Source: Candidatus Thorarchaeota archaeon (lineage in GTDB: Archaea; Asgardarchaeota; Thorarchaeia; Thorarchaeales; Thorarchaeaceae). Taken from it: a DNA stretch of 64,000 bases. Below are positions 17,339-62,082 of the stretch, in pieces (position 1 is the stretch's first letter; each line of letters begins with the position of its first letter). The notes below the pieces were generated by a model that ran no database searches, had not been told where the DNA came from, and was given only the letters and a program-made list of their open reading frames with translations. Location: contig JBHLQH010000006.1 in NCBI GenBank assembly GCA_048884965.1, positions 64,001 through 128,000 on the forward strand, in the 5' to 3' direction. Made by a program: the position numbers and the translations under genes.

Positions 17339-18532
17339 GTGCAAGCGAAATATGATGTAGTAGTTGTCGGTGCAGGTCCAGCAGGCAGTGTTGCCGCTCA
17401 GAAGGTGGCATCAAGTGGATACAAGACCCTGCTTCTTGATCGCCGCCGAGAAATTGGTGTACCTGTCCAATGTGGAGAATATCTACCTTCGATTCGAGAG
17501 ATGCATGAGATGTTCCCAAAATGCGAGCGGCTACAGAAGTTAGGAAGGATTCCTCGGAGCGTTGTAACAAACAAGACAACTGAGATGCGCCTTTATTCTC
17601 CAAGACTCCATGAGTACGTTTTTCCTCTCGAATCTCGTGTCATTGACCGTGCTCTATTTGACAAGCATCTCGCTACCAAGGCACAAGATGCAGGAGCATA
17701 TCTGAGCACAAACTCGAGGGTGTTAGAGAAGTTCCGTAAAAATAGACTCAAGGTTCGAACCTCAAAAGGAATCGAAGAGGTATCGGGGAAGGTAATCATC
17801 GGTGCCGATGGTCCTCGTTCTACCATCGCACAGTATCTTGGATTTTCCTACAGAAATACGATGAAGGATATCAGTCAATCACTACAATATGTGATTGGAG
17901 ATATTCCTATTGCAATGAAGGAGCCTATGATGTTCTTTGGACATAAGGTAGCGCCTGGTGGTTATGCATGGATCATTCCAAAGACTGATCGTGTTGTCAA
18001 TGTTGGCTTTGGCCTTCGAAACTCCTTCATGCGCCCAGGTACTACTCTGGTGTCATACCTTGACAATCTCATCAGCAATAAGGGGATATTTGGAGGAGCA
18101 TTGAAAGAAGGAAGGATTTTGTCTAGAGTCGGAGCAAGTATCCCAGTAGGTGGTCCTTTGAAACGGACCTACAATGAGAATACCATTTTGATTGGCGATG
18201 CAGCAGGGCATGTCATGGCGTCTAATGGTGGCGGTATCCCTACAGCTCTTGCAGGCGGCTCAATTGCAGGAGAAATAGTGGCTCAACATCTCGAGAATGG
18301 CCTAAGTCTTTCAGCATACGAAACACTCTGGAAACGCGAGTTTGGCACTCAACTATACTCAGCGCTTGCAACTCTGCGGATAGCAGATGTGATGATGAGG
18401 GATGACACTCTGACAGAGATTGCCATGCGTATTTCTGGAGCAAGATTTCTTGAGGATGTCATAAAATGCAGGGTTCCATCGCCGCTATCTTTTGGAACTC
18501 CTTTGTTAGCGTCACTGATGCAGCTGCTTTGA
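17339..18532 (+). CDS. Geranylgeranyl reductase family FAD oxidoreductase (GGR/MenJ-like)
   Basis: VVGAGPAG, PVQCGE, GADG, PGGYAWIIPK, IGDAAG...GGGI. Confidence 0.92.
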   Translation: MQAKYDVVVVGAGPAGSVAAQKVASSGYKTLLLDRRREIGVPVQCGEYLPSIREMHEMFPKCERLQKLGRIPRSVVTNKTTEMRLYSPRLHEYVFPLESRVIDRALFDKHLATKAQDAGAYLSTNSRVLEKFRKNRLKVRTSKGIEEVSGKVIIGADGPRSTIAQYLGFSYRNTMKDISQSLQYVIGDIPIAMKEPMMFFGHKVAPGGYAWIIPKTDRVVNVGFGLRNSFMRPGTTLVSYLDNLISNKGIFGGALKEGRILSRVGASIPVGGPLKRTYNENTILIGDAAGHVMASNGGGIPTALAGGSIAGEIVAQHLENGLSLSAYETLWKREFGTQLYSALATLRIADVMMRDDTLTEIAMRISGARFLEDVIKCRVPSPLSFGTPLLASLMQLL

Positions 18533-18608
18533 ATTCATGCAAGTTAGTCCTATATAGGGATAGGCGGCATAGTACAACTGGACCGATGCAGAAGACTTTG
18601 AATGCGAG

Positions 18609-19730
18609 ATGCCAGAAATGAGCTATTCCTCCAAATTCCTAGAAAGCGGCGATGCAGCCCGTGATTTATTGCTTGAAGCAGGATATGCAAGTGCTGCAGC
18701 CATTGAAGCTGTAACAAAACTAAGTGAGCTATGTATCTATGTTAGTTTGGTGGCAACGGTTGCCGCTGAACATGAAAAAGGTACTCCCTTGCCTGCACAC
18801 TTTGAGTCAGAGGTACATGTCAACCCAATCAAGTTGCGAGGGTCATCAACCATTAATCTAGTTGAAGAACTTGAGAATAGAAATGTACTCGTTCCCCGAG
18901 GGAACAAATATCGGGTGATGCTTAGCAACATGATGAATCGTGTATTCTCTCTAACAGCTAATAATGGACCTGATTCTATAAGAGTCGTTATTTCCAACCT
19001 TCATGATGTTGCAAAGTTTTCCAATGCTTTGGAAACCATCGAGTGGGAGCTTGTCACAGCTATCCATGAAAATGTGGATGTTAAGTATCTAGACATCCCT
19101 TCACTTGAGGCGAACAAGGTCCCAAAGGATCTTCTTGACAATGTGCAATCCATAAATGAGCTTGCTAGGCTGATGAGCGAAAATGAGATTGACTTGAATG
19201 AGTCTTCTGATTACCTCATCAAACATATGACGAAGGGACCTCAGGGATCAACAAATATGGAGATTCTTGAAAGATATCTCACCTCTATTCATACCCTCTC
19301 AAATCAGATCGAGATAGAAGGAAAGGAGAGATGGAAGATTATCCAAGGGGCGACCAAGTATCCAGTGTCGATTCTCAATAGAAGCGGGCCGCCTCTAATT
19401 AAGAGCTCTTGGCATCTAAAACCCGATTTCAGAAATCATCCTCTCATTGAGAAATTTAAGAATCTAATGAATACCAACCTTGAATTCATTATTGGAATCA
19501 TCACTATGTATGATGGATTCATTTCGGATGTGACAGAAAATGTATCTAGACTTCCTCGTGGTACAAGCTTAGTCGATGCCCTGAGAGAAAAGAATCCTGC
19601 ACTTCCCACATCTGGTGATATGGATGAGTGGTGGACTTGCATAGGTAAGCAATCGCTTGGATTGAAAGCTCAGCTAAAGCTACTGAGCAACTTGATTACA
19701 AATGTGGATTCACTTTTCCAGAATGCGTGA
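18609..19730 (+). CDS. Hypothetical soluble protein
   Basis: 373-aa ORF with no overlap with the flanking genes; no motif recognised. Confidence 0.6.
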   Translation: MPEMSYSSKFLESGDAARDLLLEAGYASAAAIEAVTKLSELCIYVSLVATVAAEHEKGTPLPAHFESEVHVNPIKLRGSSTINLVEELENRNVLVPRGNKYRVMLSNMMNRVFSLTANNGPDSIRVVISNLHDVAKFSNALETIEWELVTAIHENVDVKYLDIPSLEANKVPKDLLDNVQSINELARLMSENEIDLNESSDYLIKHMTKGPQGSTNMEILERYLTSIHTLSNQIEIEGKERWKIIQGATKYPVSILNRSGPPLIKSSWHLKPDFRNHPLIEKFKNLMNTNLEFIIGIITMYDGFISDVTENVSRLPRGTSLVDALREKNPALPTSGDMDEWWTCIGKQSLGLKAQLKLLSNLITNVDSLFQNA

Positions 19731-20798
19731 TCAATGAAGTCGCTGAAGCACGAAGTCCGCGATTCTTTCAAGCAATGTTGCAGTTACAAAGTATTGACCT
19801 ACCAACGCGCTCTTTGCCTTGGTCACATACTCCTTTGTTAATTCAATTGCCGTTGATATCGCGTCTGTCTGCTTGATGAGGATAAGCGCTTCAGAAACAT
19901 CTCCTTCAGACAGTGCCTGCAAGCAACTCTCTCTTTCTTTCATTGAAGAGGCTTCAAGAGCATGTACCAGAGGATATGTACACCTCTTCGACAACAGATC
20001 ACTATGGACTGCTTTGCCTGCAATCTCAGTCGAGGAAATGATATTCAAGATATCATCTCGGATCTGAAAGGCAAAGCCCAAGTTCTCGCCAAATATCCCT
20101 AACAGCTTAATTTGATCGTCAGTCCCTTCGCCTATTGTAGCTCCCATAGTTGCAGCAGCTTTGATGAAAGACACAGTCTTTTTGTTTACCATATCGAGAT
20201 AGTTATCCTTGGTCATCACTTCTGGATTGTCTGCTTGCATGAGCATGTCAGCAGCTTCGCCCTCACACATGCGAATACCTCCTTCTGCTATCTGTACCAT
20301 AAGGTCCGCAGTCGCATATTTTCCAATCATCTTCACCGCTTGTGCGACAAGTAGGTCTCCAGCTAGTATTGCCATTTTGTGACCGAACTTCTCATGAGCG
20401 GATTCCACACCTCGTCTTAACGCATCTTCATCTATCACATCATCATGAATTAGGCTTGCAGTCTGTGCGAATTCTGTCGCAACTGCGTATGGAAGGGCTT
20501 TTTCAATATCTCCTCCAACGGCCTCGCAACAAAGGACTACTAAGAGTGATCGTAGTCTCTTACCTCCTGCCTTCAGAAGATGCTTTGCAGTATCATAAAG
20601 AATCTTTGGCTCTCCATCAGTTCCAAGGTATGATTCAATTTCTTGATTGATTCTCTCAAGTCTTCTTTTCACTTTCTCATCCTGAAGTAGGTCGTTAAGA
20701 AAAGTCACTTCCCCATTCTGAATTGTGCTTTCTGGGAATAGACCATATGTATCTGCATCAGCGATAGCGTCTTTCTCGTTCAACACTTCATCCTTCAA
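19731..20798 (-). CDS. Trans-polyprenyl diphosphate synthase, probably medium/long-chain
   Basis: GGKRLR, FARM ASLIHDDVID-RRG, GQ/GE-D region, KT, SARM FQIRDDILN. Ala at position -5 before the FARM. Confidence 0.9.
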   Translation of the reverse strand: MKDEVLNEKDAIADADTYGLFPESTIQNGEVTFLNDLLQDEKVKRRLERINQEIESYLGTDGEPKILYDTAKHLLKAGGKRLRSLLVVLCCEAVGGDIEKALPYAVATEFAQTASLIHDDVIDEDALRRGVESAHEKFGHKMAILAGDLLVAQAVKMIGKYATADLMVQIAEGGIRMCEGEAADMLMQADNPEVMTKDNYLDMVNKKTVSFIKAAATMGATIGEGTDDQIKLLGIFGENLGFAFQIRDDILNIISSTEIAGKAVHSDLLSKRCTYPLVHALEASSMKERESCLQALSEGDVSEALILIKQTDAISTAIELTKEYVTKAKSALVGQYFVTATLLERIADFVLQRLH

Positions 20799-20929: not shown

Positions 20930-21964
20930 ATGAATAGTGAAGAGAGAGAAGTTAGCAAGCTCAAAGCGTATTTCTTGGAACTACGTGCACCTTTTCTTAC
21001 GGCATCAATTTCACCTGTGTTACTTGGGACGGCAATAGCTTGGGCATTGACAGGTATCTTTCTAATTGATGTGTTTCTCCTGACATTGATCGCAGGCGTA
21101 TGCCTTCACATTGGTGCAAATGTATCAAATGACTACTTCGATCACACCACAGATAATACGGGCTCAGACGACATTAACACGGAGTTCGTTCGGCCCTTTA
21201 CAGGTGGAAGCAGGATGATACAGTTGGGGTATCTCTCACCTAGGGAGGTCTTGATTGAAGCATTCGTTTTCTTCGGTATTGCAGGAGCTATTGGTGTCTA
21301 CCTTGCGTTTACACGAGGATTCCTGATTTTGGTTCTTGGAATCATAGGTGCTGGCTCCGGATTCTTCTATACCGCCCCACCTTTCAGATTTGTAAAGAGG
21401 GGTATTGGAGAAGTCTTCATAGGTCTGAATTTTGGAGTTCTCATGACTTTTGGTTCATACTATGTTCAGGCATTGGATATTGCTTTGGAACCCATTCTTG
21501 CATCGGTGCCCACTGCACTTCTTATTGCAGCTGTCCTGTATATCAATGAGTTTCCTGATTTTATTGCAGATCGGGACTCTGGCAAAAGAACCATTGTTGT
21601 AAGACTTGGACGGGCTAGGGCCGCTAAAGGATATGCATTGATCATCGCCATTACTTTTTCATGGATAGTTATTTGTGTGCTTATGCAACTTATTTCATAT
21701 GAGTCCCTTCTTGCTCTTACACTTCTACCCATTGGATATGTTGGGGTGCGTACTGCCCTAAAAGAATATGAAACGCCTAATCGGATGGTCCCAGCAAATG
21801 CTGCGACCGTGTTACTACACCTCTTGATAACGTTGTATCTCACGTCTGCATACATCTTGAAGGGATTCATGGTGGATTTTCTCATACTCATTGTTGCTGG
21901 AGTCATCATGCTACTAATCTGCTTCACCCAATACAGGACACTTATTCGCCCGCCTCCAGCTTAG
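20930..21964 (+). CDS. menA: 1,4-dihydroxy-2-naphthoate polyprenyltransferase (UbiA superfamily)
   Basis: LRAPFLTAS, NVSNDYFD, GGSR, YTAPP, GIGE, NEFPD-ADRDSGKRTIVVRLG. Confidence 0.88.
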   Translation: MNSEEREVSKLKAYFLELRAPFLTASISPVLLGTAIAWALTGIFLIDVFLLTLIAGVCLHIGANVSNDYFDHTTDNTGSDDINTEFVRPFTGGSRMIQLGYLSPREVLIEAFVFFGIAGAIGVYLAFTRGFLILVLGIIGAGSGFFYTAPPFRFVKRGIGEVFIGLNFGVLMTFGSYYVQALDIALEPILASVPTALLIAAVLYINEFPDFIADRDSGKRTIVVRLGRARAAKGYALIIAITFSWIVICVLMQLISYESLLALTLLPIGYVGVRTALKEYETPNRMVPANAATVLLHLLITLYLTSAYILKGFMVDFLILIVAGVIMLLICFTQYRTLIRPPPA

Positions 21965-22430
21965 AGGACGACTTTTTTGGGCTCATCCATTTTTGAAACT
22001 TGATGCCTTTCCAATAGTGGATGATCTTTGGAACTACTTCAATGGCGACTCTTGAACCCATGGGAAATCCATATCCCAAAAAATCAAGATATTTGCTTAG
22101 ATATCTGTTTAATATAATATCTCCCATTTCGGGTATGCTAATCACCCTAGCCTTCCCTCTGAGAAGAACGCCTCTATTGCCTGCAGGAGAGTCAGGGTCT
22201 CTTTCATCAACGGTTATAGCTATGTTCGGGTTCGTCTTTATGTTCTTTAGCTTCTTGGTCTTCTCATTGGTGATAAGGTAGACCTTCTCTTCCTTCTCAT
22301 CCCAGAGATAGAACATGGTTGTGATATGCGGTTGACAACCTGGTTCTGCTGAAGAAAGATATGCGAAGAAGCCTTCATTCAAAATCCTATGTACTTCATC
22401 GGGGATATTGGGATGCAATGAATGACTCAT
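21942..22430 (-). CDS. Pyridoxamine 5'-phosphate oxidase-like split beta-barrel protein (FMN/F420/heme-binding class)
   Basis: AYLSS...PHITTMFY...KKLKNIKTNPNIAITVD...GVLLRGKA. Start moved to ATG 22430. Confidence 0.85.
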   Translation of the reverse strand: MSHSLHPNIPDEVHRILNEGFFAYLSSAEPGCQPHITTMFYLWDEKEEKVYLITNEKTKKLKNIKTNPNIAITVDERDPDSPAGNRGVLLRGKARVISIPEMGDIILNRYLSKYLDFLGYGFPMGSRVAIEVVPKIIHYWKGIKFQKWMSPKKSSSKLEAGE

Positions 22431-22437
22431 CTTTCTA

Positions 22438-23694
22438 TCACACCCTAAGTGATGTTGGACGGGCTTCACGCCAATAGGTGACGCTCTGAGGTTCCAATCT
22501 CACAAGAACTCTTGAAATCAATGGTTTGCTCTGCCATGCAAGAGGTAGATTCTGTGATTCTTCTTTGTAATATTTCGTATACTTGGGGTATTTTCGTGTG
22601 AACATTGAACGTACTCGTAGCATCGATAAACCATAGAGAAACATCCTAAATACACCAATAGGAGAAATCTCTCCGAGGATGGTTCCAGTTCCTTGCATCA
22701 ATAATGTTCTGTTGTTCATCACATTCTTTCTATCTCGCATGTCGACAAGAACTGCCATCCTATTATTTCTCCTCAGATATCGGTATTTCGCAGACTTCAC
22801 ACTGGTAGCAAAGTAAAGATTCCTTCCGTCATAAACGAAGATGACTGGAGTAGTATGAGGATCTGTTTTTGTACACACGGATGCATACGCGAACTTCTCA
22901 TTGTATAGTATGCTTTCAACATCGGGTGGAAACCATGGAATAGTTTCCATTGCGAGGAAACTAATGACGGATAAGAGGAGAACCCCTCCAAGGAATGCGA
23001 TGATTCCAAGAGTCAATAAAGGAGAGGATGTGGCGATTGGTAATAGTAGTACAGCTGATGCCACCCACAGCAGATTGACCCAATCAATTGACTTCAAAGT
23101 TTGCAATTCTGAATATGCAGTATACTCAAGACCACGTCTTCCTCTTGCTGCTCTGGCCAGACTGATGGAACGCTTGGCTGCAAAGGAAGTCGTTAGGAAT
23201 GAAAGCCACAAACGATATGCGATATCCCAAGTTAGGATTAGGATGAGAAGCACAAGGATTGGGTTTCCATAACCTATGCCAAGAAATCTTGCCAAGATAG
23301 AAGGTTCAAGTATGAATAGATAGAATGAAACTCCAATGAATGCTGCAACACTTCCAGCCAGCTCATATTTCCTATCACATAGGAGTCGATTTTTGTATGA
23401 AGCTAGAACATCAAGCTCTTCTTCGTTGGTGGGGTTCTTTAATCTGCGCAGCCAAGGAATTACGAACAGGCAGCCAGATGACCAAACTACTGTATAGATG
23501 ATGGCAAGTGTGCCAAACACAACTGAATCCAGTGGCATCTGAAAATAGAGGAATGCCAGAATACCGACAGTTTCCACTAGGAGAAGCTGCGCAAGGACCT
23601 GAAAATCTGGACGTAGCCATTTGAAGGGTGGAACGTGCTCCACGATTTCTTCATAGAGCCACTTCTTTTCTTCAAGATCCACATTTTGACACAT
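22438..23694 (-). CDS. Fusion of a ~6-TM membrane domain with a C-terminal PNPOx-like split-barrel domain
   Basis: Residues ~30-250 hydrophobic; C-terminal FAYASV...PHTTPVIFVYDG...SAKYRYLRRNNRMAVLVD is similar to the downstream gene. Confidence 0.75.
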   Translation of the reverse strand: MCQNVDLEEKKWLYEEIVEHVPPFKWLRPDFQVLAQLLLVETVGILAFLYFQMPLDSVVFGTLAIIYTVVWSSGCLFVIPWLRRLKNPTNEEELDVLASYKNRLLCDRKYELAGSVAAFIGVSFYLFILEPSILARFLGIGYGNPILVLLILILTWDIAYRLWLSFLTTSFAAKRSISLARAARGRRGLEYTAYSELQTLKSIDWVNLLWVASAVLLLPIATSSPLLTLGIIAFLGGVLLLSVISFLAMETIPWFPPDVESILYNEKFAYASVCTKTDPHTTPVIFVYDGRNLYFATSVKSAKYRYLRRNNRMAVLVDMRDRKNVMNNRTLLMQGTGTILGEISPIGVFRMFLYGLSMLRVRSMFTRKYPKYTKYYKEESQNLPLAWQSKPLISRVLVRLEPQSVTYWREARPTSLRV

Positions 23695-23743: not shown

Positions 23744-24967
23744 TTATTCATAGATTTCTTCGAGACCATCCCATTCGAAACCCATTGCTTGAGCTACTAA
23801 TACGACCAAGTCCTTGGATAACTTGTTTGACCCTGCACCAGGTAATTGATTGTGCATGAAGTCGACACAAGAGGGACAATGTGACGCTACAACATTCGCA
23901 TTCGTAGCCTCGATGTCCTTGACCTTCAGATCGTTGATCTTAACGGCAAAGTCATTGTCTATTGCTCGGAGAACACCGCCTGAACCACAGCAATAGCTGT
24001 TTCCCTTGTTGTGAGGCAACTCCTCAAATACAACTCCAGGTAGATGTTCGAGAACCTTTCTAGGCTCCTCATAGAAGCCTGCGTTTCGACCTGCATCACA
24101 ACCATCATGATAGGTGACTGTCAAACCAAGGGGAGTGGTGAATTCCAACTTGTTGGCATCAAGGAGTTCCAACAGATACTCGGCACCATATACGATATCA
24201 AAGTCGTGCTCGATACCTAGGAACTCATGATACTCATGTGCCCACATCTTGTAGCATCCGGGGCAATTGGTAACAATCCTCTCAACGCCAAGTTCCTTGT
24301 ATTTCTCGATATTGTGAAGCGCGAATTTCCTTGCTGTTTCAAAATCTCCAGTCATGATCATCGGAGCACCGCAGCACCATTCTTCTTCACCAAGTAGAGT
24401 GAAGTCGACTCCTGCTTTGTCATAGATGAGAGTAGATGCTATTGTTCCCTGTATTGATACACCTTTGAAGGAGGAAGCACAGCCCATGAACAATGCTGTC
24501 TTTGCCTCTTTTCCCTGTAGGTCAAGTACCATGTCCTCGTCAGGGTGCCAGTATGACCAACCCTCAATCCTATCCATCTGAGATTGGCCCTGAATATTGT
24601 TAGTCTTCAGGAGAGTGTCCTTTGCCATCTGCAGCTCCTCTGGCCACATTCCTCTCTTTAGGAAATCATGACGCAGAAGCTGGTAGATCTTGACAAATGG
24701 GATGTCTACTTGACAGATCTCCTCACAACCTCCACATAGAGTACAACCAAAGATGGCGTCCCTGAGACCTTCTAGTCCTTGAGATGGTTTGAGTCGTCCC
24801 TGGATTAGATTCCTGGCAATGACCATCTTGCCCTTGCCAGAGTAACTATCACGCCGCTTGACCTTGTATGTCGGACAAGCTCCATTGCCTACTTGGCAGA
24901 AACTGCATTGAGCGCATGTATAAGGGATATCATGGAGTCCATGTGCTTCGAGTGTTGGGAATCGCAT
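23744..24967 (-). CDS. HdrD/GlpC-like Fe-S protein (2x[4Fe-4S] plus two CCG domains), paralog 1
   Basis: CAQCSFC...CP, CTLCGGCEEIC; CCG1 GC..WCCG..NCPGC; CCG2 HDGC..YCCG..HCPSC. Confidence 0.92.
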   Translation of the reverse strand: MRFPTLEAHGLHDIPYTCAQCSFCQVGNGACPTYKVKRRDSYSGKGKMVIARNLIQGRLKPSQGLEGLRDAIFGCTLCGGCEEICQVDIPFVKIYQLLRHDFLKRGMWPEELQMAKDTLLKTNNIQGQSQMDRIEGWSYWHPDEDMVLDLQGKEAKTALFMGCASSFKGVSIQGTIASTLIYDKAGVDFTLLGEEEWCCGAPMIMTGDFETARKFALHNIEKYKELGVERIVTNCPGCYKMWAHEYHEFLGIEHDFDIVYGAEYLLELLDANKLEFTTPLGLTVTYHDGCDAGRNAGFYEEPRKVLEHLPGVVFEELPHNKGNSYCCGSGGVLRAIDNDFAVKINDLKVKDIEATNANVVASHCPSCVDFMHNQLPGAGSNKLSKDLVVLVAQAMGFEWDGLEEIYE

Positions 24968-27692: not shown

Positions 27693-27699
27693 TTCCCTC

Positions 27700-28853: not shown

Positions 28854-28860
28854 GAGGTGA

Positions 28861-29813: not shown

Positions 29814-29814
29814 A

Positions 29815-32599: not shown

Positions 32600-32603
32600 A
32601 AAG

Positions 32604-34589: not shown

Positions 34590-34600
34590 GGTGATCAAAG

Positions 34601-36904: not shown

Positions 36905-36905
36905 G

Positions 36906-46117: not shown

Positions 46118-46126
46118 TCGTAAAAA

Positions 46127-47502: not shown

Positions 47503-47503
47503 T

Positions 47504-48175: not shown

Positions 48176-48244
48176 AAAGTCACTTCCCTTTGAATGTCCA
48201 AGTTGGATTAGCTACAAATATGAAGCTTTCGCTCAAATATCATT

Positions 48245-48919: not shown

Positions 48920-48928
48920 TTCTTCACC

Positions 48929-52615: not shown

Positions 52616-52628
52616 TGTAATCCTCCTC

Positions 52629-53126
52629 TTATGGCCATGGAAGTCCTAACCAATCAAGTATTGGCTCCAAGATTGATGTATTGTAAACTGCTATACCACC
52701 CATTGCACCCATCAGGATCATGAGTGCGCCACCGACTACAACTAGAATTCCGTAGATGAGGAACCCTGATGTAGTATCCCAGACCTTATCACCTAGTTTT
52801 GCTCGTACGATGACTAGAAAAACATAGATTTGAGTAGTGATGGCTGAAAAGAGGATCTTGAATCTCATGTAGGGGTCGAGAACTAGTGCTTCTACTGGCC
52901 AATCAAGAAAGCCTGTGAACATCGCTGCTACCAGTCCAAGCAAACCAATGATATTTCCCCAGAAGATAAAGACATCAAACTCATGAAAGATTCTTGACAT
53001 CCTTGTCCCAGGGGTCTTGATGGCCTCTCTGAATACAAGTCTAAATAATAGATTGAAAAGACCTAGCGCTGCACAAGCTGCTAGAATTCCTGTGTGGAAG
53101 TGAACGAAAACCGGATGTAATGCCAT
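52629..53126 (-). CDS. DUF2231-like 4-TM membrane protein (possible b-heme binder)
   Basis: N-terminal LHPVFVHFH and TGFLDW motifs; 4 TM helices. Confidence 0.65.
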   Translation of the reverse strand: MALHPVFVHFHTGILAACAALGLFNLLFRLVFREAIKTPGTRMSRIFHEFDVFIFWGNIIGLLGLVAAMFTGFLDWPVEALVLDPYMRFKILFSAITTQIYVFLVIVRAKLGDKVWDTTSGFLIYGILVVVGGALMILMGAMGGIAVYNTSILEPILDWLGLPWP

Positions 53127-53136
53127 TTCTTGTCAC

Positions 53137-53754
53137 CTACCTCTGCGTCCTCTTGCACATCACGACACCAAAGATCACTAGCATGACTGCGACTATTGGA
53201 TTAAGCGTGTACATCAAGAATGTCCAAAGCTCTACTCGTTCCTGCTCAGGATCCACTGTGGTTGTAGTAGTAGTTGATGTAGGGGGAGTAAATGTTGTAT
53301 CAGTATTCTCCTCTACGGTGATACTGACCTCTACACTAGCGGAAAGTTGCTCTCCTGCTGCAACCCAAACCTTGATTGTGAAGGTGCCAGCTGCAAGAGG
53401 TGTAATCGATATCTCTGCGCTGATCTCGCCCGGATTTGAGTCGTCATCACCAGTACCGTCATCTTCTACCTGTGTAAGTGAGAACAAGAACTGATCATTG
53501 TCAGCCCAAGCGCTTACAATCTTCAGGTCGGCAACTCCGTTTCCTCCATCAAAAATGAGGGTAAATGGAACGCCTACTGTTGCATCTACTGTTCCTGTCG
53601 CATTCGATGAAAGCGTCAGGACACTTTGATTTGTGTGACAGTCACCGCACTCAGTGTTGCTTGTTGGAAAGCCGAGTGCCTGTGTTCCGCCAGCCACAAT
53701 GATTGCTAGAAAGCAAGTTACAAGTAACAACTTTTTCGCAAGCTTTGGTTTCAA
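53137..53754 (-). CDS. Membrane-anchored monoheme c-type protein with beta-sandwich domain
   Basis: Signal peptide, CGDCH just after the cleavage region, beta-rich domain, Thr-rich stalk, C-terminal TM. Confidence 0.75.
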   Translation of the reverse strand: MKPKLAKKLLLVTCFLAIIVAGGTQALGFPTSNTECGDCHTNQSVLTLSSNATGTVDATVGVPFTLIFDGGNGVADLKIVSAWADNDQFLFSLTQVEDDGTGDDDSNPGEISAEISITPLAAGTFTIKVWVAAGEQLSASVEVSITVEENTDTTFTPPTSTTTTTTVDPEQERVELWTFLMYTLNPIVAVMLVIFGVVMCKRTQR

Positions 53755-53881: not shown

Positions 53882-55591
53882 CTACCTTCTAAAAAGGTGT
53901 CTGATTATTCGTAAAGCTGGAATACCGATCCGCAATGCTTGTCGGAGTGTCAATGATTTCATGAAGATAAACCCGAAAACGCCTCCAACCAATGAGATGA
54001 GGAATGCTGGAGGTATATTGGAATCTCCTGACCAAAGTAGTATATCGAGGAATTCGAAGCCTGGAATTATTGGTGCAACTATTTGGGCCGCGATTGCAGC
54101 CAAGTATCCAAGAATGAACCCGAGACTAAGTGATTTGTTTTTGGCTACAACTCTTCCACCAAAGACCTTCAAAGGATTCATCAGGTTCCTTGGGTCGATT
54201 TGAGACTTGATTTTCTTTAAAGCTGCTTTTTGCTTTTTCCCATAGAATTCATCTGCATAGGGTACATTCCATAGGGCGACAGCGTAAGGCAAGCCATCGA
54301 ATTTTGCTGCGGTTGATGCCACATCAAAGGACCTATGCCATCCAAGGGTGTATGAGAGTTTCTTCCTTTCATCATCCAGAATCCATACAAGGAATGAAGT
54401 TGTTTTGTCATTGCTAACGGTGCCCTCTATCGCAATGGCCTCCATTCCTATCGAGTCGACTATCTTCTTATGGAGCCCAGGAAGCTGATTAATGGGAATA
54501 ATAACCTCTGCAGGTACCAAGCTAGGTCCCAGCGTTTTGATACGGAGAGGATAGAGTCTTTCATCCCAATGGTACTGAGCCCGCTTTTCACCTGTTATCC
54601 CACCCTTATGAGCTTCGACGATTCTCTTTACCATATCAAGGTCCTCATCTATCTGATAGAATGTATCAAGGAATGCACATGTAAGAATGAATTTGCCATA
54701 CTCATCGATAGAGCTCCTGGGAGAAAACCTTTTTGTTGTATATGTATCGGTAATAAAACGCATATAGTATGGCTGGGTTTCTTTGCTGAGGTCTATGATT
54801 GCACATGTGAGACTTTCTATATCATCGAATATGCATACCACTGTTCTAAGTACTAATTTTGGAATCACTCTTAGAGTGATACGAGTAATGATACCAAATG
54901 TGCCAAACAATCCGAGAAAGAGGTCCATTGGCTCAGGTTTCTCATCTTCGGGCAGTTTTTGAAGTACCTCTTGAAGGTACTTGTTCCCTTGGTCTGCAAT
55001 ATTCTCAAGGCCATCGTTTTCTCTTAATGCGAACTCTCCGAGTCTCACTAGCATACCATTGGGAATGACTCCTTCTATGCCTGCAACTTGGGTTCTAATA
55101 TCCCCATATCTCGCTGATCCAATACCCACACCTCCACTGGCTGCAAAACCTCCAATCGTTGCAGCTGAAGCGCTTGAGGGATAGACCGGAAGAGTAAGCC
55201 CAATTTGCTCCAAGAAAACCAAGAGTTCTTTCCATGTCATCCCAGCTTCGACTGTGACAAGCATTCTATACTCATCGATATGAACGAATTTCGACATATG
55301 CAATGTGCTTATGCAAATTCCACCATGAGTTGGTAGAGCGCCTCCCCATCCGGATGTTCCACTTCCTCGGGGTACTATAGGAATTCTATGTTCAAAGGCG
55401 TATTTGACAAGTTTCGTAAGTGAGCTGATTGTTTGCGGTTGAGTGATAATCTTGAATTGATTGTCAATAATCTGGAATGCCAAGCTCGGAAGAGCTGCGA
55501 TGTCACGTGAATACAGCCTTGTTGTTTCCTCTTGGACTGATACATTATCAGCTCCGACAATGTCTTCGATATTTTGGAGGTGTGCTTTCAT
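53882..55591 (-). CDS. VAO/PCMH FAD-binding oxidoreductase, paralog 3, with C-terminal TM anchor
   Basis: PRGSGTSGWGGA, YPSSASAATIGGF, GTFGIIT, WDERLYPLRIKTLGP, MNPLKVF, then hydrophobic helices. Confidence 0.9.
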   Translation of the reverse strand: MKAHLQNIEDIVGADNVSVQEETTRLYSRDIAALPSLAFQIIDNQFKIITQPQTISSLTKLVKYAFEHRIPIVPRGSGTSGWGGALPTHGGICISTLHMSKFVHIDEYRMLVTVEAGMTWKELLVFLEQIGLTLPVYPSSASAATIGGFAASGGVGIGSARYGDIRTQVAGIEGVIPNGMLVRLGEFALRENDGLENIADQGNKYLQEVLQKLPEDEKPEPMDLFLGLFGTFGIITRITLRVIPKLVLRTVVCIFDDIESLTCAIIDLSKETQPYYMRFITDTYTTKRFSPRSSIDEYGKFILTCAFLDTFYQIDEDLDMVKRIVEAHKGGITGEKRAQYHWDERLYPLRIKTLGPSLVPAEVIIPINQLPGLHKKIVDSIGMEAIAIEGTVSNDKTTSFLVWILDDERKKLSYTLGWHRSFDVASTAAKFDGLPYAVALWNVPYADEFYGKKQKAALKKIKSQIDPRNLMNPLKVFGGRVVAKNKSLSLGFILGYLAAIAAQIVAPIIPGFEFLDILLWSGDSNIPPAFLISLVGGVFGFIFMKSLTLRQALRIGIPALRIIRHLFRR

Positions 55592-56784
55592 TTCTCCTCC
55601 CCCATCTTCTTTTCTTCCAAGGATTCAGCGACTAGCTCAGTAATGTCTTGCACTTGGAGAGAATAATGCATTGTTTGCGTCGCGGTATCTAGAGCTTGAA
55701 CACATCTTGGGCATTCAGTAACTAATCTTGAGGCTGGAGTAACTGATGCATCCCTGAGACGCATCTCTGCAATCTGGGATGATAGGAAGGGGTCTGCAAT
55801 ATTTAACATCCCGTGCCATCCGCAGCATCTGGTTTCTTTCCCAGAATGAGCCATCTCTACTTTATAGACCCCTGGTATCCGATCAATTATTTCTCTTGGT
55901 TGATTATGAATGTTTAACCTTCGAGCTGATATACAAGGATCATGATATGTTACAGTAACCATCGGCTGTTCTCTCAATCTCAGCAAGTTCTTCTCTATCA
56001 ACGATCGGATGAATTGTGATGAGGTCAATAATTTGAATTTGTTAGTAATTGGTTCGCCGAGAATACCAGAGTATGTATTGTACCAAGTACTAATGCATGA
56101 TGGACAGCTGAACACGACCTTTTCTATTCCAAGCTCTTCCAGGAGTGAGATGTTCTTTTCTGCTATGAGCGGAGCATTCTCTCTATCTCCACCCCATAAT
56201 AATGGAGCACCACAGCATCCTTCCCTCTTCCCTAGTAATGTATAATCCACCCCCGAATGCTCCAAAATCTTGACCATAGAACGAGCAATCCCTCCCAGTT
56301 GTGGTTTAAGAGAAACATCACATCCAAGTAGGTATGCTGTTTTTGATGGAGCTTCTATTCGTGAAGACACATCGATCTCAAAATTATCAGTCCATTCCAT
56401 TCGTGCCACAGAGCCCATTGCAAAGGGGTCTCCATATTTAACAACGGATTCACAAGCGAATTTGACTGAAGGAGGAATCATTCCTCTTTCCCACGCTTCA
56501 GCTCTAGCGAATTCCCAGAATCTATCCAAGCTTAGGCTTGTAGTGCATACATGTGAGCAATACTCGCAGAGGGAGCACATGAAGAGCTTCCTCACATACT
56601 CCTCATCAAGGTCTGCCTTTCCCTCCATGATATCCTTGGTCACTTGGATTCTTCCTCGAGGACCGTAGGATTCCCACTTCAATTGGCGAAAAGTGGGGCA
56701 CACCATCGTGCAGTTGCCACATGATGCACAGATATACGGATCCTCTCCATGACCCATGGCATCAATAATTCTAAGCCGTGACAT
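55588..56784 (-). CDS. HdrD/GlpC-like Fe-S protein (CCG), paralog 3
   Basis: CASCGNCTMVCP, CSLCEYCSHVC; GCCG/SCPSC; HDPC/RCCG/ECPRC. Confidence 0.92.
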   Translation of the reverse strand: MSRLRIIDAMGHGEDPYICASCGNCTMVCPTFRQLKWESYGPRGRIQVTKDIMEGKADLDEEYVRKLFMCSLCEYCSHVCTTSLSLDRFWEFARAEAWERGMIPPSVKFACESVVKYGDPFAMGSVARMEWTDNFEIDVSSRIEAPSKTAYLLGCDVSLKPQLGGIARSMVKILEHSGVDYTLLGKREGCCGAPLLWGGDRENAPLIAEKNISLLEELGIEKVVFSCPSCISTWYNTYSGILGEPITNKFKLLTSSQFIRSLIEKNLLRLREQPMVTVTYHDPCISARRLNIHNQPREIIDRIPGVYKVEMAHSGKETRCCGWHGMLNIADPFLSSQIAEMRLRDASVTPASRLVTECPRCVQALDTATQTMHYSLQVQDITELVAESLEEKKMGEEK

Positions 56785-56827
56785 ATCTGAACCTCAAAGT
56801 ATCTGACAAAATTCCAAATAGAAGAGT

Positions 56828-56860
56828 GATGTCAGCGGCAGAATATTTGTCGCTGACATT
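56828..56860 (-). terminator. Intra-operon hairpin (terminator or stabiliser)
   Basis: ATGTCAGCG...CGCTGACAT 9-bp perfect core, extendable; T-rich sequence follows on the minus strand. Confidence 0.5.
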
Positions 56861-56876
56861 CTTAGTGTTTTGGTCT

Positions 56877-58211
56877 TCAGGCAAAATCATGTGTCATCTC
56901 TTGAGCACATGCTATGCCAGACTTTGATGCTGCCTCCATCGAGGCATAATACTTGCCGCAGTTTGCAAAAGAACCAGCAACATATAGTCCTTCGATACCC
57001 GTTCTATTAGTTCTCAACCGCTGATCCATAATTCCTGGTGGTTGTGATAGAACAGATCGCCATATCTTCCAGCTCTTTTTCCAAGTGACCTTCTCTTCTA
57101 TCCCTGGCACGAGTTCCTTAAGCTCCTCCAAGATAGCTGCTGTAGCTTCTTCATTCTCCATCTTCAAGAGTTCCTTATCAATGGATGTTACTGTTAGAAG
57201 GGATTCACCGATTGGTGCCAACACCCCTGAAACGCGTTTCGCCTCAGCAATGATGTGTATCTTCTTTCCAGGAATGAAACCGCCAACATTGAAATCCAAC
57301 ACTCTGGCAGAAAGTCCAAAGTATGCAACTACGGACGGTCTGTAGCTGAATTTTCTAACAGCGGTTGTAAAGTCATTTGGTAGTTGGTTCATATCAACGA
57401 AGTTTGGCAGGAGATCTATCGGTGTCGTTACGACTGCAGCATCGGTTTCGACATAGTGCTCTTTACCATCCTGAGTGTATTCGATTCCCTTGACTTTTTC
57501 ATCTTCGATGACGATCTTTTTCACATCGCAATTGACCTTTGGCTCGATTGCGAAATTCCTTGCCTGGAGCATGAGAGTATATGGAACGCTACCAAGTCCG
57601 CCTCTTTCAGGATACATCGCTTTGAACCCGTCTTCGTATGCGAATCTGAGCTGTTCGGAATAGAGATATTGTCCAGCAGATACCTCTGCGGGGTCCATGA
57701 ATGTAACGGTACGAATGAGCGGGTCGTAGAAATTAGAGAGAATATCCTCAGGTATCTTCTCTTCTGCATATTCAGCAAATGTCATCTTATCGAGATCGAG
57801 AAAATCAGCTTCTGTTCTTTTTAGATTCTCTTTGACAAGATCCCCCAGTTTCTTTCTATCTCCCAGACCTAGGAGATTGAATCGAGCTTGATCGATAATT
57901 GATTGAGTGAGTAAATATCGCTCTCCACCTTTGAGCCATACCGCACCCTCTCCGACCGTAGTCATTCGTACTCCACTCCGTTCAAGGATTGGAATTAATG
58001 ACTTGAAACCTCCAACAAAGAAGTGCAAGCCTTGGTCAAAGACATACCCAGATTCGGTAAAGGATCTGGCTCTGCCACCTACAGTAGATTCCTTCTCAAG
58101 GATCTGGCATCGCGCTTTCAAGCCCTTCAGTTCTAGGGCACAGGAGAAGCCTGCGATACCGGCTCCAACTATTACAACTCTTGTTCCTTTTTTCTCACTC
58201 ATTCGTGACAC
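56877..58211 (-). CDS. FAD-dependent oxidoreductase, amine-oxidase / protoporphyrinogen-oxidase / phytoene-desaturase superfamily
   Basis: IVGAGIAG, LEKESTVGGRARS...GYVFDQGLHFF, GLYVAGS...SMEAA--SG. Confidence 0.85.
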   Translation of the reverse strand: MSRMSEKKGTRVVIVGAGIAGFSCALELKGLKARCQILEKESTVGGRARSFTESGYVFDQGLHFFVGGFKSLIPILERSGVRMTTVGEGAVWLKGGERYLLTQSIIDQARFNLLGLGDRKKLGDLVKENLKRTEADFLDLDKMTFAEYAEEKIPEDILSNFYDPLIRTVTFMDPAEVSAGQYLYSEQLRFAYEDGFKAMYPERGGLGSVPYTLMLQARNFAIEPKVNCDVKKIVIEDEKVKGIEYTQDGKEHYVETDAAVVTTPIDLLPNFVDMNQLPNDFTTAVRKFSYRPSVVAYFGLSARVLDFNVGGFIPGKKIHIIAEAKRVSGVLAPIGESLLTVTSIDKELLKMENEEATAAILEELKELVPGIEEKVTWKKSWKIWRSVLSQPPGIMDQRLRTNRTGIEGLYVAGSFANCGKYYASMEAASKSGIACAQEMTHDFA

Positions 58212-58239
58212 CTCATTCTCAGAATTTCCATTAATCTAT

Positions 58240-59376
58240 TCACTCCTCAACCAATGAAGATTGTGCTAGATCAAGGATCAGCTCATCAAGCTGGATGACC
58301 TCAAGGTCAGTTCCTCGAGCACAATAGCTCAAGTTCTTGAAGCATGAAACACAGGTCGTGATTAGCCCATCAACTCCTAGTTCTACTGCCTCAGCTACTC
58401 TCTTCTTCCCTATAGACTCAGAAAGATCTGGGTCTATAACGCTTACAAAACCCCCGCAGCAATTTGAGTTCTCGCGGTTGTTAGCCATCTCGACAAACTC
58501 AAGACCGGGGATGGCTGTGATAATGTCTCTTGGTGCTTGGTATATCCCAAGGGCCCTGCCAAGGTGGCACGAATCATGGAAGGTATATCTTCCTTCCATA
58601 CCCTTGAAAGTTAGGACACCATTCTTTGCCATGTCTGCAAGGACTTCCACAGTATGATGTATCTTGATATCAAAGTCCTTTATCACATGTGAATAATGTT
58701 CTGCTAACGTTCCAAAACATCCTCCACATCCAGTGATGATATGATCTACACCTGCCTTCTTGAACATTGCGTAATTCTTCTTGATGATGGCTTCGAATCC
58801 TTCATCATCTCCAGCCCAATAGTTCATTAGTCCACAGCAAACCTCACTTGGAACATAGCCCACGTTCACCTTCAGCTTCTTCATCATATCAGCTACCATC
58901 TCTGGCTGGTCTGGATACCAATAAGAGCCCATGCATCCAGAGAAGATAGCGGTATTCGATTCCTCTGGAAGTTCAAGATCCTCTGCCCAAACGGTCCGTT
59001 CCTCAGCCTCGTACCCAACGAATGGTGTGCCTTCCTTTGCTAGCCAATCGAGGACTTTGGTCAATCCTTCAGATCGAACTCCACCGGTGTTTATCATTGC
59101 TGCCTTAGCATCATGCCAATACGTTGTTACTGGAACCCCCGCTGGGCAAACAGCTTCACACCTTCTGCAATCTGCGCAATAGAGTCTTTCAAGAAGCTCC
59201 TGTGGTGGTTTTGTTAGCATCTTCTCACCATAGGCTCTAAGGGCTCGCAGCTTACCCCCGGGGCTATCAAGCTCTGAGCCAAGTTCTCTATACATTGGAC
59301 AAAAGTCTCGGCAATAGTTACAAGAACCACATGCTCTGAGAACATCCATATTCAAATCTACTTTCACTTCTTTCAC
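58240..59376 (-). CDS. HdrD/GlpC-like Fe-S protein (CCG), paralog 4
   Basis: CGSCNYCRDFCP, CADCRRCEAVCP; VCCG/GCGGC; HDSC/NCCG/TCVSC. Confidence 0.92.
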   Translation of the reverse strand: MKEVKVDLNMDVLRACGSCNYCRDFCPMYRELGSELDSPGGKLRALRAYGEKMLTKPPQELLERLYCADCRRCEAVCPAGVPVTTYWHDAKAAMINTGGVRSEGLTKVLDWLAKEGTPFVGYEAEERTVWAEDLELPEESNTAIFSGCMGSYWYPDQPEMVADMMKKLKVNVGYVPSEVCCGLMNYWAGDDEGFEAIIKKNYAMFKKAGVDHIITGCGGCFGTLAEHYSHVIKDFDIKIHHTVEVLADMAKNGVLTFKGMEGRYTFHDSCHLGRALGIYQAPRDIITAIPGLEFVEMANNRENSNCCGGFVSVIDPDLSESIGKKRVAEAVELGVDGLITTCVSCFKNLSYCARGTDLEVIQLDELILDLAQSSLVEE

Positions 59377-60854
59377 CTCGCAAGAAACTTGGCAAGTCTT
59401 CTAAATGCAGTTGCCAAACCAAACAAGACATTGATTCTACCGTATGATGTCATACAAGATGTAATCCTGTCTGGGTTCATGATATTACTTGGATCCATAG
59501 TTCCCTTCGCTTGCTTCATTTGCTCGAATCTATCACGATATGCTTTCTTCATGTATATCGAATTCTGAAGTCCGATGGTGTATGGACCGCCTCCATATTT
59601 GATTGCCCTCTTCATCATTTTATGGAGTATTCCCTTACTCGATATGAACTCGAGATATCTATCTGGATTGAGCATGGTCAAGAGTTCCAAACGCATCATG
59701 GACCCATAACCAAGCATCCCATACCAGAGAAGAGGATTCTTGTGAGTCTTTTTGGTCTTCTCATATGCAGTTAGGATATCAAAGACCCTATCTACCTCGA
59801 CCCAAAGCTCTTGGAACATTAGTGTATGAGTATGCTCCTTTGGATTGAATTCACAATCATATCGGAGTTCCCATTCTTTTGCGGCATAGTCCTCTCCTAC
59901 TGATGCTCCACCGCTAGTTGAGATTATATCAAAGATTTCTGCCACAGGAGCAGTATAAGCATCCTCTGCGTATGTCACTGTCATTACGTATCGTCCTTTT
60001 TCAAGAGGATTGCTATAGCTCTGGAATTTACTATCAGCTATTTTGAGGTACAATGGTTTTGCCTCAAGCTTTGCGATCTGACTCATTGCATTGCATACCT
60101 GTTCAAGATAAGCAAAACCAAAACTCATTGTTCTCAGATTCGCTGGTTTTGGTCTGATTCTCAGCTTGGCTTCTACGATGACGCCAAGTATACCATAGGA
60201 CCCATTGTAGAGACCCAATTCGGGTCCTTGGATAGTCTGCATTCGACCATCGGGTTGAATAACCTTTACTTCTTCTAGGTTCTCCAGAAGCGTGCCATAA
60301 TAGGGTGTTCCTACTCCTGCTTTTCCACCACATCCTATCCACCCACCGATTACTGCAGATTTTGCACTGGTTGGGTAGATACCAAGCTCAAGCCCTTTCT
60401 TGTCAAGCTCAGTTTCGAGTTGCATGAAAGTGACTCCCGGCTCAACGCGGACATACATATCATTGGAGTCGTCAGATATCTCCAAGATGGCATTGAGTCG
60501 CTTCATATCAAGTGAAATGCCACCTCTTGAGGGACTAGAGGAACCAAGACAGCTTGAAGCTCCTCCTCTGGGAATTACTGGTAGCTTGTGTGAGCTAGCA
60601 ATTGCGATGATATCCTTAACTTGATCAATATCGGTTACACGGACGACATAGTCTGCAAGGTATCTTCTCTTCCATCTATAATGAAATTGCGGCAAAGCAG
60701 ATGGGTCGCCGCTGTAGACAATCCTTTCCAGCTCCATATCTGAAGCATTCTTTTCTCCAACGACTCCAACCAGTTTCTTGAGTACATCATCGCCTTCTTG
60801 AATGGCTTCTACCACAACAACTGGTTCATCAGCTTTAGTTTCTGTTTCTGTCAT
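59373..60854 (-). CDS. VAO/PCMH FAD-binding oxidoreductase, paralog 4 (most divergent)
   Basis: PRGGASSCLG, VEPGVT, YPTSAKSAVIGGW, GSYGILGVI, DP-NIMNP; short amphipathic C-terminal tail. Confidence 0.88.
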   Translation of the reverse strand: MTETETKADEPVVVVEAIQEGDDVLKKLVGVVGEKNASDMELERIVYSGDPSALPQFHYRWKRRYLADYVVRVTDIDQVKDIIAIASSHKLPVIPRGGASSCLGSSSPSRGGISLDMKRLNAILEISDDSNDMYVRVEPGVTFMQLETELDKKGLELGIYPTSAKSAVIGGWIGCGGKAGVGTPYYGTLLENLEEVKVIQPDGRMQTIQGPELGLYNGSYGILGVIVEAKLRIRPKPANLRTMSFGFAYLEQVCNAMSQIAKLEAKPLYLKIADSKFQSYSNPLEKGRYVMTVTYAEDAYTAPVAEIFDIISTSGGASVGEDYAAKEWELRYDCEFNPKEHTHTLMFQELWVEVDRVFDILTAYEKTKKTHKNPLLWYGMLGYGSMMRLELLTMLNPDRYLEFISSKGILHKMMKRAIKYGGGPYTIGLQNSIYMKKAYRDRFEQMKQAKGTMDPSNIMNPDRITSCMTSYGRINVLFGLATAFRRLAKFLAR

Positions 60855-60855
60855 G

Positions 60856-62082
60856 TTATCCCATCCTGAAGTATAATCCTAGGTACATCCCTGTAAATCC
60901 AAGAATAGTCCATAATACGACCGCCGGTAGTCCGAGGTTACACGTCTTCCATCCGCCTAGATGAGTAATGAATGCAAGAGTTCCTAGAATCATGCTGATG
61001 ATGCCAAGCCAAATGTGCCATGAATGCACGAACATGATGATGTTACCTGGATTGATAAGGTACTGAATGTCCATTGCAGTGAACACTGATGGGTCCTCGA
61101 AGAAGAGCCAGCATACATTGATCGATGTAAGTATGTAGGCCAATCCTAGCATGATACCATGTGCTCTAGTGTACTTCTCTTCATCATAGTACTCTAATGC
61201 AGTTCCGAGGTAGGCGAGCACAAGTGCTGGAGCTCCTAGTAGCCAACCATAATGAAGCTGTGGTGTTGGTTCTGGTGGAGGTATTGGAATATCTCCCACT
61301 CTGTAATCCAACTCCCAAGACACTGTTTCTTCTCCGGTATCATCACCCGCCACAACTCGATAGATGACATATGTATCATCAGGTTGGCCTGGTATCTCTC
61401 CGGAGTATAGTCCTGCATCAAGAGTCATTGAAACGTTTGTCCATGACGAGCCATTATTTACGGTATATTGTAATCGAACATATGATATCGTTGCAGTTTC
61501 GGAGGTAACATTTACCACTACTAGAACAGGTTCATTATTCAGAGGAATCGAAGGTGTTCCATTAATCATGTTGATCGATGGCCCAGGTCCTGCTGGTAAT
61601 GAAACAGTTACCGTAATGTCTGTATTGATTGAGAGTGGTGTGTGCTGAGCTCCATATACTCGAAGGGTGTATGTCCCTGGAGCGGTAGGAGCAGTGATTG
61701 TGTAATTCACTTCCACTGCATCAGTAGCTGCATTCGTGTCTAATGGATCGCCATCCTCGACTCTTCCCTCCGCGTCCAATGATGCATAATCAAATTGATT
61801 ATTATCAACTAAGGATGATGGGAACTTCACTACGAGGGTGTTCTCTCCGCTTTCTCCTGTTACACTGATTACAACGCTAAATTGTTCTCCTATTTCCACG
61901 GTAACAGAGTTGGGGGATGCTGAGATACTCATTGACCCTGGACTATCATGGCATCCAGAGGCATCGCACGCCCCAGTTTGTCCTGGAAATCCCAAGACGG
62001 TTGTTGACGCTAGGAATAGGACCGCTGTTGCAATCGCGACGATTATTGCAATCCTAAATTGTTTCTTCACATCGGTCACCAA
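60856..62082 (-). CDS. Monoheme-c (CX4CH) / Ig-like ectodomain fused to a His-containing multi-TM domain
   Basis: Signal peptide, CDASGCH, two beta-sandwich domains, Pro-rich linker, then ~4 TM helices with His at LHY, AHG, HSWH and THL. Confidence 0.7.
   Translation of the reverse strand: MVTDVKKQFRIAIIVAIATAVLFLASTTVLGFPGQTGACDASGCHDSPGSMSISASPNSVTVEIGEQFSVVISVTGESGENTLVVKFPSSLVDNNQFDYASLDAEGRVEDGDPLDTNAATDAVEVNYTITAPTAPGTYTLRVYGAQHTPLSINTDITVTVSLPAGPGPSINMINGTPSIPLNNEPVLVVVNVTSETATISYVRLQYTVNNGSSWTNVSMTLDAGLYSGEIPGQPDDTYVIYRVVAGDDTGEETVSWELDYRVGDIPIPPPEPTPQLHYGWLLGAPALVLAYLGTALEYYDEEKYTRAHGIMLGLAYILTSINVCWLFFEDPSVFTAMDIQYLINPGNIIMFVHSWHIWLGIISMILGTLAFITHLGGWKTCNLGLPAVVLWTILGFTGMYLGLYFRMG

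Follow-up and report, generated by a model that had tools for sequence, protein, structure and literature searches.

Few Asgard archaea are as widespread as Thorarchaeia, which are treated as organoheterotrophs that trade hydrogen and are usually described as fermenters. Here, we analyzed a stretch of 64,000 nucleotides from a Candidatus Thorarchaeota archaeon (assembly GCA_048884965.1, contig JBHLQH010000006.1, positions 64,001 to 128,000), hereafter the window, and within it a locus at positions 17339 to 62082 that groups a complex I-like pump, quinone-type genes, flavoproteins and c-type cytochromes, the NuoB subunit of the pump being fused to a flavin adenine dinucleotide (FAD) oxidoreductase. 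Several described systems come close to this arrangement. For Sif- and Jordarchaeia, passages of Sun et al. (2021, PMC9723677) propose a headless Nuo complex acting on menaquinone, together with Dld-HdrD pairs. A headless Fpo with HdrD, carrying an extra fpoM in one family, was proposed for Bathyarchaeia, and an Fpo-HdrD-GlcD complex for Methanomethylicia (PMC8407382; 10.1101/2022.08.18.504445). The 2M form of complex I is characterized, in the published passages on it (PMC7117926; 10.1101/2021.11.15.468770), by an extra NuoM and an insertion of about 26 aa in the transverse helix of NuoL. Finally, OcwA of Thermincola potens is a nine-heme surface reductase (PDB 6I5B; PMC6703420).

The Thorarchaeia locus shares with the Sif- and Jordarchaeia system the lack of NuoEFG, a proposed ferredoxin donor, a presumed menaquinone acceptor and many pairs of FAD and CCG-domain proteins. 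However, a FAD::NuoB fusion is not mentioned in the passages describing that system (PMC9723677), nor are a fourth antiporter, any c-type cytochromes or a supercluster, and the Thorarchaeia FAD enzymes lack the metal ligands of D-lactate dehydrogenase (D-LDH). With Fpo-HdrD(-GlcD) it has in common 11 core subunits and, as proposed partners, a CCG protein and a GlcD-like flavoprotein; the Fpo-HdrD-GlcD link was inferred from co-occurrence, whereas the Thorarchaeia flavoprotein forms one chain with NuoB and is linked to menA and prenyl genes. Compared with the 2M complex, the present version is archaeal, has the gene order A-J-K-C-D-H-I-M'-L-M-N, and keeps nuoB outside the operon and fused. A large survey of Asgard complex I describes hydrogenase-type complexes and not this one, and the main text of an archaeal fusion survey reports FqoBC/BCD fusions only (PMC11237513). 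A preliminary description of the window had presented the whole system as a candidate undescribed one. The literature searched, which did not extend to paywalled papers, contained no account of the fusion or the supercluster, and none of an OcwA-like cytochrome from Thorarchaeia. The supercluster and the OcwA-like branch appear undescribed; the headless Nuo and the Dld-HdrD pairs, in contrast, had already been proposed for other Asgards (PMC9723677). New here are the nested two-tier distribution, the family-wide lack of the ring pathway, the sister complex with a free NuoB and the OcwA assignment. Our preferred reading, held tentatively at somewhat under an even chance, is a two-tier anaerobic respiratory locus in which a ferredoxin-to-quinone pump carries a tethered FAD/CCG_a unit working at the quinone level, with cytochromes as an optional exit.

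A complex I-like pump fused to a flavoprotein

The nuo operon (28419-39962) contains no nuoB. With the fusion included, the core of the complex I superfamily is complete (NuoA, B, C, D, H, I, J, K, L, M and N, the N2 ligands and the antiporter Glu/Lys residues). The pump had been reported as devoid of nuoEFG, of fpoF and of a NiFe site. As expected, no PF01512 match to nuoF, and hence no NADH head, was found in the host genome (4.09 Mb, 95.7% complete, 7.2% contaminated), and NuoD lacks both Ni-binding CxxC motifs of group 4 hydrogenases, showing RLCMLE and DPYPG instead of RxCxxC and DPCxxC. The stand-alone nuoB considered at the time is not present either: the fusion is the only NuoB of this genome, and two further weak matches to the NuoB model are group 3b hydrogenase subunits. 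Only the statement on fpoF has to be narrowed, since it holds for the locus and not for the genome. Most named homologs, both of the fusion and of NuoD, come from Ca. Thorarchaeota.

Two NuoM genes score above the TIGR01972 cut-off, here and in 12 relatives, and the transverse helix of NuoL spans 77 aa between two landmarks, against 48 in E. coli (9/9 Thorarchaeia genomes and the sister lineage), with an internal repeat 26 residues apart. Together, the second NuoM and the lengthened helix match the published 2M signature. The four antiporter subunits M', L, M and N retain their key Glu/Lys residues, except for Lys265, which is Glu in M', and the complex may, by analogy with 2M enzymes, have a raised stoichiometry, moving about 5 ions for every 2 electrons. 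Searches of the host genome for Rnf/Nqr, bd oxidase, NrfD, Mrp and group 4 hydrogenase gave nothing; as nuoF is missing too, this 95.7% complete genome has yielded no complex I-family pump other than the nuo complex.

Midpoint potentials are about -450 to -500 mV for ferredoxin, -340 mV for F420, -190 mV for lactate and -74 mV for menaquinone. Moving about 5 ions per 2 electrons against a motive force of 150 mV requires about 375 mV, a drop that fits ferredoxin and not 2-hydroxyacids. The same figure bears on a candidate F420 route. A 357-aa FpoF-like protein, which combines an FrhB domain with two ferredoxin motifs, is encoded elsewhere in the host genome near an mtd-like gene (C13:67786-68859 = L001:958-2031). 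It could dock on NuoI as a stand-alone subunit and turn the complex into an Fqo-like F420H2:quinone oxidoreductase, the fusion being incidental. Although the FpoF model is covered over most of its length, the score is 152 bits for a cut-off of 475, the gene occurs in all 16 genera of the family, including four without the pump, and the roughly 265 mV between F420H2 and menaquinone are too little for five ions. We regard this route as highly improbable.

The motifs of NuoD speak to the acceptor. Both His residues of the quinone loop are kept, H22 occupying the position of Thermus thermophilus His38, and Glu122 preserves an acid at the position of Asp139. However, Met70 replaces Tyr87 in all Thorarchaeia rows, and the solved structure that NuoD matches best is MbsL, a subunit of the MBS sulfane reductase of Pyrococcus furiosus (6U8Y), which likewise lacks a NiFe site and keeps the first Cys of the former motif. 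A quinone-independent complex of the Fpo-HdrD or MBS type, delivering ferredoxin electrons by way of N2 either directly to CCG_a or to a disulfide or a polysulfide, would account for these features; the fusion would hold an HdrD/GlcD unit on the pump, and menA would serve other enzymes. The best-scoring model for CCG_a is indeed TfrB, TfrAB is encoded in the genome (C35 = L059, beside fumarate hydratase-like genes), and Fpo-HdrD and Fpo-HdrD-GlcD complexes were proposed in other archaea (PMC8407382; 10.1101/2022.08.18.504445). In contrast to MBS, however, the Thorarchaeia complex has NuoA/J/K, four NuoL/M/N-type subunits and the second loop His, which MbsL lacks, and it does not keep the C-terminal Cys of MbsL. 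Moreover, the sister clade has Ser for the first Cys, and menA, the prenyl synthase and GGR adjoin the fusion in most genera read. On balance, a quinone-independent complex seems distinctly unlikely.

The fusion itself, correctly recognized in the preliminary description, is a single frame of 646 aa whose NuoB part scores above the model cut-off. One open frame covers both domains in 56 of the 86 family genomes, which rules out an assembly artifact. The protein falls into 46 sequence clusters (74-100% identity, nearly all 646 aa), every one of which retains the four N2 Cys ligands. Its FAD domain adopts a VAO/PCMH fold of the LctD/LDHD type (TM-score 0.80-0.84 by target) and resembles D-LDH/GlcD enzymes (7QH2 LctD, mouse LDHD) in its FAD motifs and CCG partner. 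The metal-site His/His/Glu motifs of these enzymes (GDGNxH, EHG) are nevertheless absent from 46/46 fusion homologs and 12/12 host paralogs. A D-LDH label was therefore rejected, and the substrate should not be a standard D-2-hydroxyacid; the protein also scores below the glcD cut-off. In the AlphaFold model, the NuoB part is mostly at a predicted local distance difference test score below 55, and the FAD-N2 distance is not readable. The linker consists of three amphipathic helices and corresponds to the tail of an unfused ortholog, which suggests a membrane tether derived from the flavoprotein's own C-terminal sequence.

This unfused ortholog (498 aa) is found in genus g2, linked to menA and CCG_a in the absence of such a NuoD and of the pump. 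Conversely, genome G399, which represents the sister lineage and belongs to another Asgard family, encodes the same J-K-C-D-H-I-M'-L-M-N order with a stand-alone NuoB and the same local motifs. A pump without the fusion and a FAD/CCG_a/menA unit without the pump indicate that the fusion joined two existing units. G399 also has a second, orphan NuoD (L031:12991-14094, C31), and its stand-alone nuoB (L044:1949-2509) adjoins a hypD-like gene. In Thorarchaeia, CCG_a lies near the fusion in all loci read; in several genera, monoheme heads on stalks of 770-1481 aa are inserted between the two (L006:4952-8944, L007:14003-16315, L039:358-4803, L054:6257-9931); the host has such a stalked monoheme protein at C2:39037-41370.

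The preliminary description took one FAD/CCG module as hard-wired to the ion pump in a chain ending on cytochromes. As an input head, it would feed electrons from a substrate through FAD, CCG, NuoI and N2 to quinone, with pumping. The almost invariant length of the fusion, its intact N2 ligands and the lack of nuoF agree with such a head, and other microbes have proteins of about 900 aa in which FAD and CCG parts are fused. However, textbook potentials leave only about 115 mV between lactate and menaquinone, the D-LDH ligands are missing, the linker is a tail that the unfused ortholog also has, and the sister lineage runs the same operon with a free NuoB. We therefore do not follow the claim as first worded and consider an input head improbable.

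Two nested tiers of distribution

We compared 86 genomes of the family, representing 16 genera. A core tier comprising GGR, the prenyl synthase, menA, CCG_a, the fusion and the headless four-antiporter complex without a NiFe site is present in 12 genera, and the fusion and the pump-type NuoD are confined to these same 12. Genera g4, g7 and g12 show neither. Each of the pump-less genera (g2, g4, g7 and g12, one genome per genus) carries a true group 4 NiFe hydrogenase, which suggests that the pump stands in for a ferredoxin-oxidizing hydrogenase and has the same ferredoxin-oxidizing role.

The accessory tier consists of the OcwA-like cytochrome, ccmABCDEF, the monoheme/four-transmembrane (4-TM) proteins and the additional FAD/CCG pairs. 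Its genes occur only in the same five genera, all pump-bearing (multiheme in 35/86 genomes, ccmF in 37/86, the 4-His domain in 37/86 and FAD_b in 39/86). In the other 7 of 12 pump genera, no ccmF, multiheme or accessory FAD/CCG gene was found, including in nine genomes that are 91-98% complete, so the core must function without c-type cytochromes. The idea that cytochromes form the obligatory end of the chain is thus abandoned. On the pump tree, the genera with the accessory tier do not form a clean clade: g8, which lacks the tier, is placed with g1 (92% support), and the deep nodes of this tree are weak.

Both the fusion and ccmF are present in 32 genomes. In 14 of them, from 4 genera, they lie on one contig and always within 40 kb of each other; the remaining genomes, mostly fragmented assemblies, have them on separate contigs. 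Gene order differs among the host, G020, G051/G068 and G084, and the gene set stays together; as this set is co-located in other genera, the grouping is not due to chance. Genome G045, a single contig rated 86% complete, provides a counter-case: its multiheme gene is 670 kb away with the FAD/CCG modules still adjacent, and multiheme and monoheme genes were found in it without a ccmF detectable by the query used. The earlier single-island view is therefore right about linkage across genera and wrong about one chain, there being two nested tiers. A foreign island was ruled out, since the GC content of the locus (0.452) is close to that of the genome (0.441) and most relatives have mutS next to the GGR end, both pointing to a resident, ancestral locus.

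Quinone genes, heme modules and a proposed route of electrons

MenA is encoded in 63 of the 86 genomes and 15 of the 16 genera. In the host genome, menA and an unlinked menG both score above cut-off, whereas menB-like matches fall below theirs. The prenyl synthase has Ala or Ser before the first DDxxD motif in 14/14 relatives checked, which marks a long-chain type; its second copy also has small residues at the chain-length positions. GGR adjoins the prenyl synthase or menA in most relatives. In line with a quinone, GlpABC-like genes are encoded elsewhere in the host genome with a sugar-kinase gene and another FAD/CCG pair (C21 = L058), and GlpABC is quinone-linked in characterized cases. However, neither menD nor mqnA/D (PF02621) was found above cut-off in any of the 86 genomes. 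The chain can therefore not be called complete, as it first was, the host genome having also yielded no NrfD-type quinol dehydrogenase. Judging from these genes, a scavenged naphthoate ring is probably prenylated, and a quinone head group of unknown type is possible.

The multiheme protein has nine heme sites in a c554- plus NrfA-like arrangement, and hydrophobic helices at both ends. Its presence and that of two monoheme proteins had been noted before; as a qualification, the sites comprise 7 CxxCH, one CxxCM and one CX6CH, two being non-canonical in the host. OcwA is its closest solved relative (6I5B, E 6e-11) and shares the nine heme positions, the two halves, the C-terminal helices and an aligned site 5. 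In contrast to OcwA, site 5 is CxxCM, CxxCQ or CxxCH among relatives, the spacer of site 9 is longer and varies, and helices are present at both ends. This variation led us to reject CxxCM as a conserved new catalytic ligand. By analogy, a surface location and reduction of solid acceptors are candidate functions. The cytochrome c maturation system I is complete.

The 408-aa protein of module d combines a heme motif, an immunoglobulin (Ig)-like domain and four helices bearing four His residues conserved in 16-17 of 17 rows. Profile comparison of this 4-His domain returned DUF2231/DUF420/NrfD-like models, and the anchor may bind heme b; when the monoheme/4-TM alignment was used as a profile, matches to Ig-like repeats swamped the search. 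Stand-alone four-His membrane proteins of 125-137 aa head a fifth FAD/CCG pair in relatives (L004:13848-14225, L006:15952-16341, L035:18410-18817, L053:3268-3681).

From the observed genes, motifs, fusion, distribution and clustering, we infer a ferredoxin input, a quinone, a direction of electron flow and an acceptor for the two-tier respiratory locus. Reduced ferredoxin from the oxidation of organic matter would dock on NuoI, and electrons would pass through N6a/N6b and N2 to a prenylated naphthoquinone, which MenA, MenG, GGR and the prenyl synthase would build on a scavenged ring. For every 2 electrons, the four antiporter subunits would move about 5 ions. The fused FAD domain and CCG_a would form a GlcDF/HdrD-like unit at the membrane beside the quinone site, exchanging electrons at the quinone level, probably as a cytoplasmic sink. 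In the five genera with the accessory tier, FAD/CCG enzymes with heme-b-like four-helix anchors and monoheme heads, together with the OcwA-like surface cytochrome and Ccm, could provide an exit to an outside acceptor such as Fe(III), humics or a partner cell. A wider claim would be that some Thorarchaeia respire through extracellular electron transfer. Their ferredoxin:quinone pump, moving five ions and carrying the flavoenzyme covalently, would use a naphthoquinone ring derived from neighbors, and transmembrane heme modules with an OcwA-like cytochrome would lead to minerals, humics or partner cells. In our view, this is possible and rather doubtful.

Several points weigh against this proposal, in addition to Met70 and the match to MbsL. 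The ring pathway (menD/menB or mqn) was not found and a quinone is not assured, menA is also present in pump-less genera, and no quinol dehydrogenase of the NrfD type was seen in the host genome. A fold search with the 4-His domain gave generic four-helix bundles only. Furthermore, we assigned a direction to the FAD/CCG enzymes from energetics and from gene distribution rather than from a known substrate, and clustering partly reflects inheritance because related genomes are not independent.

The direction could also be reversed: FAD/CCG enzymes would oxidize organic substrates of modest potential and reduce quinone, some of the quinol being spent on fumarate or through the cytochromes, and the ion motive force would drive the 2M complex backwards to reduce ferredoxin. 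Such a role, making low-potential reductant from quinol, was proposed for 2M complexes (10.1101/2021.11.15.468770). The host genome encodes 12 FAD/CCG-type flavoproteins, and close models of its CCG proteins include the quinone-reducing LdhH and GlpC. However, no Rnf, group 4 hydrogenase, Mrp or bd oxidase was found there to pay for reverse transport, and the cytochrome exit is absent from seven pump genera. We consider reverse operation unlikely, and retain the ferredoxin-to-quinone direction.

Gene content and meaning for Thorarchaeia

The gene inventory given at first is accurate: all named genes are where they were placed, about 36 of the 41 genes of the locus are related to redox or cofactor functions, the count of four FAD/CCG pairs is right when the fusion is included, and ccmA, said to follow directly on a FAD/CCG operon, starts 81 bp beyond it (Table 1). 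The barrel-like 759-aa protein sits between the multiheme and ccmF genes in the clustered loci read. A sigma-70 promoter scan gave matches at chance level, this model being unsuited to archaea.

Table 1. Genes of the locus, in window coordinates
Feature	Position	Strand	Remark
GGR-family reductase, candidate quinone side-chain reductase	17339..18532	+	TIGR02032 above cut-off; core tier
373-aa protein, no family assigned	18609..19730	+	patchy among relatives
Polyprenyl diphosphate synthase, long-chain type	19731..20798	-	second copy elsewhere in genome
menA, 1,4-dihydroxy-2-naphthoate (DHNA) prenyltransferase family	20930..21964	+	TIGR00751 108.8 bits, cut-off 102.15
PNPOx-like flavin-binding protein and DUF7530-PNPOx membrane protein	21942..23694	-	downstream of CCG_a
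CCG_a, 2x[4Fe-4S] and two CCG domains, HdrD/GlcF/GlpC-like	23744..24967	-	divergent from fusion; core tier
FAD::NuoB fusion	25195..27135	+	VAO/PCMH FAD oxidoreductase aa 1-450, NuoB aa ~497-630
Two small membrane proteins, 186 aa (+) and 121 aa (-)	27132..28065		conserved between fusion and nuoA
nuoA, J, K, C, D, H, I	28419..33035	+	NuoD without NiFe CxxC motifs
nuoM', L, M, N, four antiporter-like subunits	33036..39962	+	NuoL transverse helix lengthened
OcwA-like multiheme cytochrome, nine heme sites	40275..41666	+	accessory tier
759-aa alpha/alpha-barrel-like (epimerase/GH88-like) exported protein	41756..44035	+	
ccmF	44036..46117	+	
Flavodoxin-fold flavin mononucleotide reductase family protein	46294..46917	+	
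ccmA, B, C, D, E	46967..49609	-	gene order E, D, C, B, A by coordinate
ccmD, 45-aa open reading frame	47365..47502	-	name rests on position and shape only
Module b: monoheme exported protein (53137-53754), DUF2231-like 4-TM protein (52629-53126), CCG_b, membrane-anchored FAD_b	49691..53754	-	
Module c: CCG_c, membrane-anchored FAD_c, flavin amine-oxidase/HpnE-like oxidoreductase (56877-58211)	53882..58211	-	
Module d: monoheme, Ig-like and 4-helix membrane protein (60856-62082), FAD_d, CCG_d	58240..62082	-	

Around the locus, by-eye reading of the window identified a mutL-like gene (2107-3918), a mutS-like gene (13034-15685) and, on the minus strand (10362-12907), a pair of genes, the first 2Fe-2S/ASKHA corrinoid-activation-like and the second encoding an MtrH-like methyltransferase. 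An ADP-forming acetate-CoA ligase alpha-like gene (62286-63674, minus strand) lies on the other side, and several relatives have such a gene downstream of nuoN or of the unfused FAD gene. The host genome also contains two operons of group 3b (sulfhydrogenase type), one 10 kb past the window (C6:138334-142315) and one at C3:137182-141199.

The fusion offers genetic support for the proposed Fpo-HdrD-GlcD association and yields one soluble domain for assay. If the two-tier respiratory reading is true, most Thorarchaeia genera would conserve energy by a quinone-type pump, often replacing a hydrogen-evolving one, they would depend on a quinone ring supplied by the community, and some would pass electrons outside the cell. 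This would bear on models of Asgard-bacterial syntrophy and point to DHNA, Fe(III), anthraquinone-2,6-disulfonate (AQDS) and an electrode as leads for cultivation.

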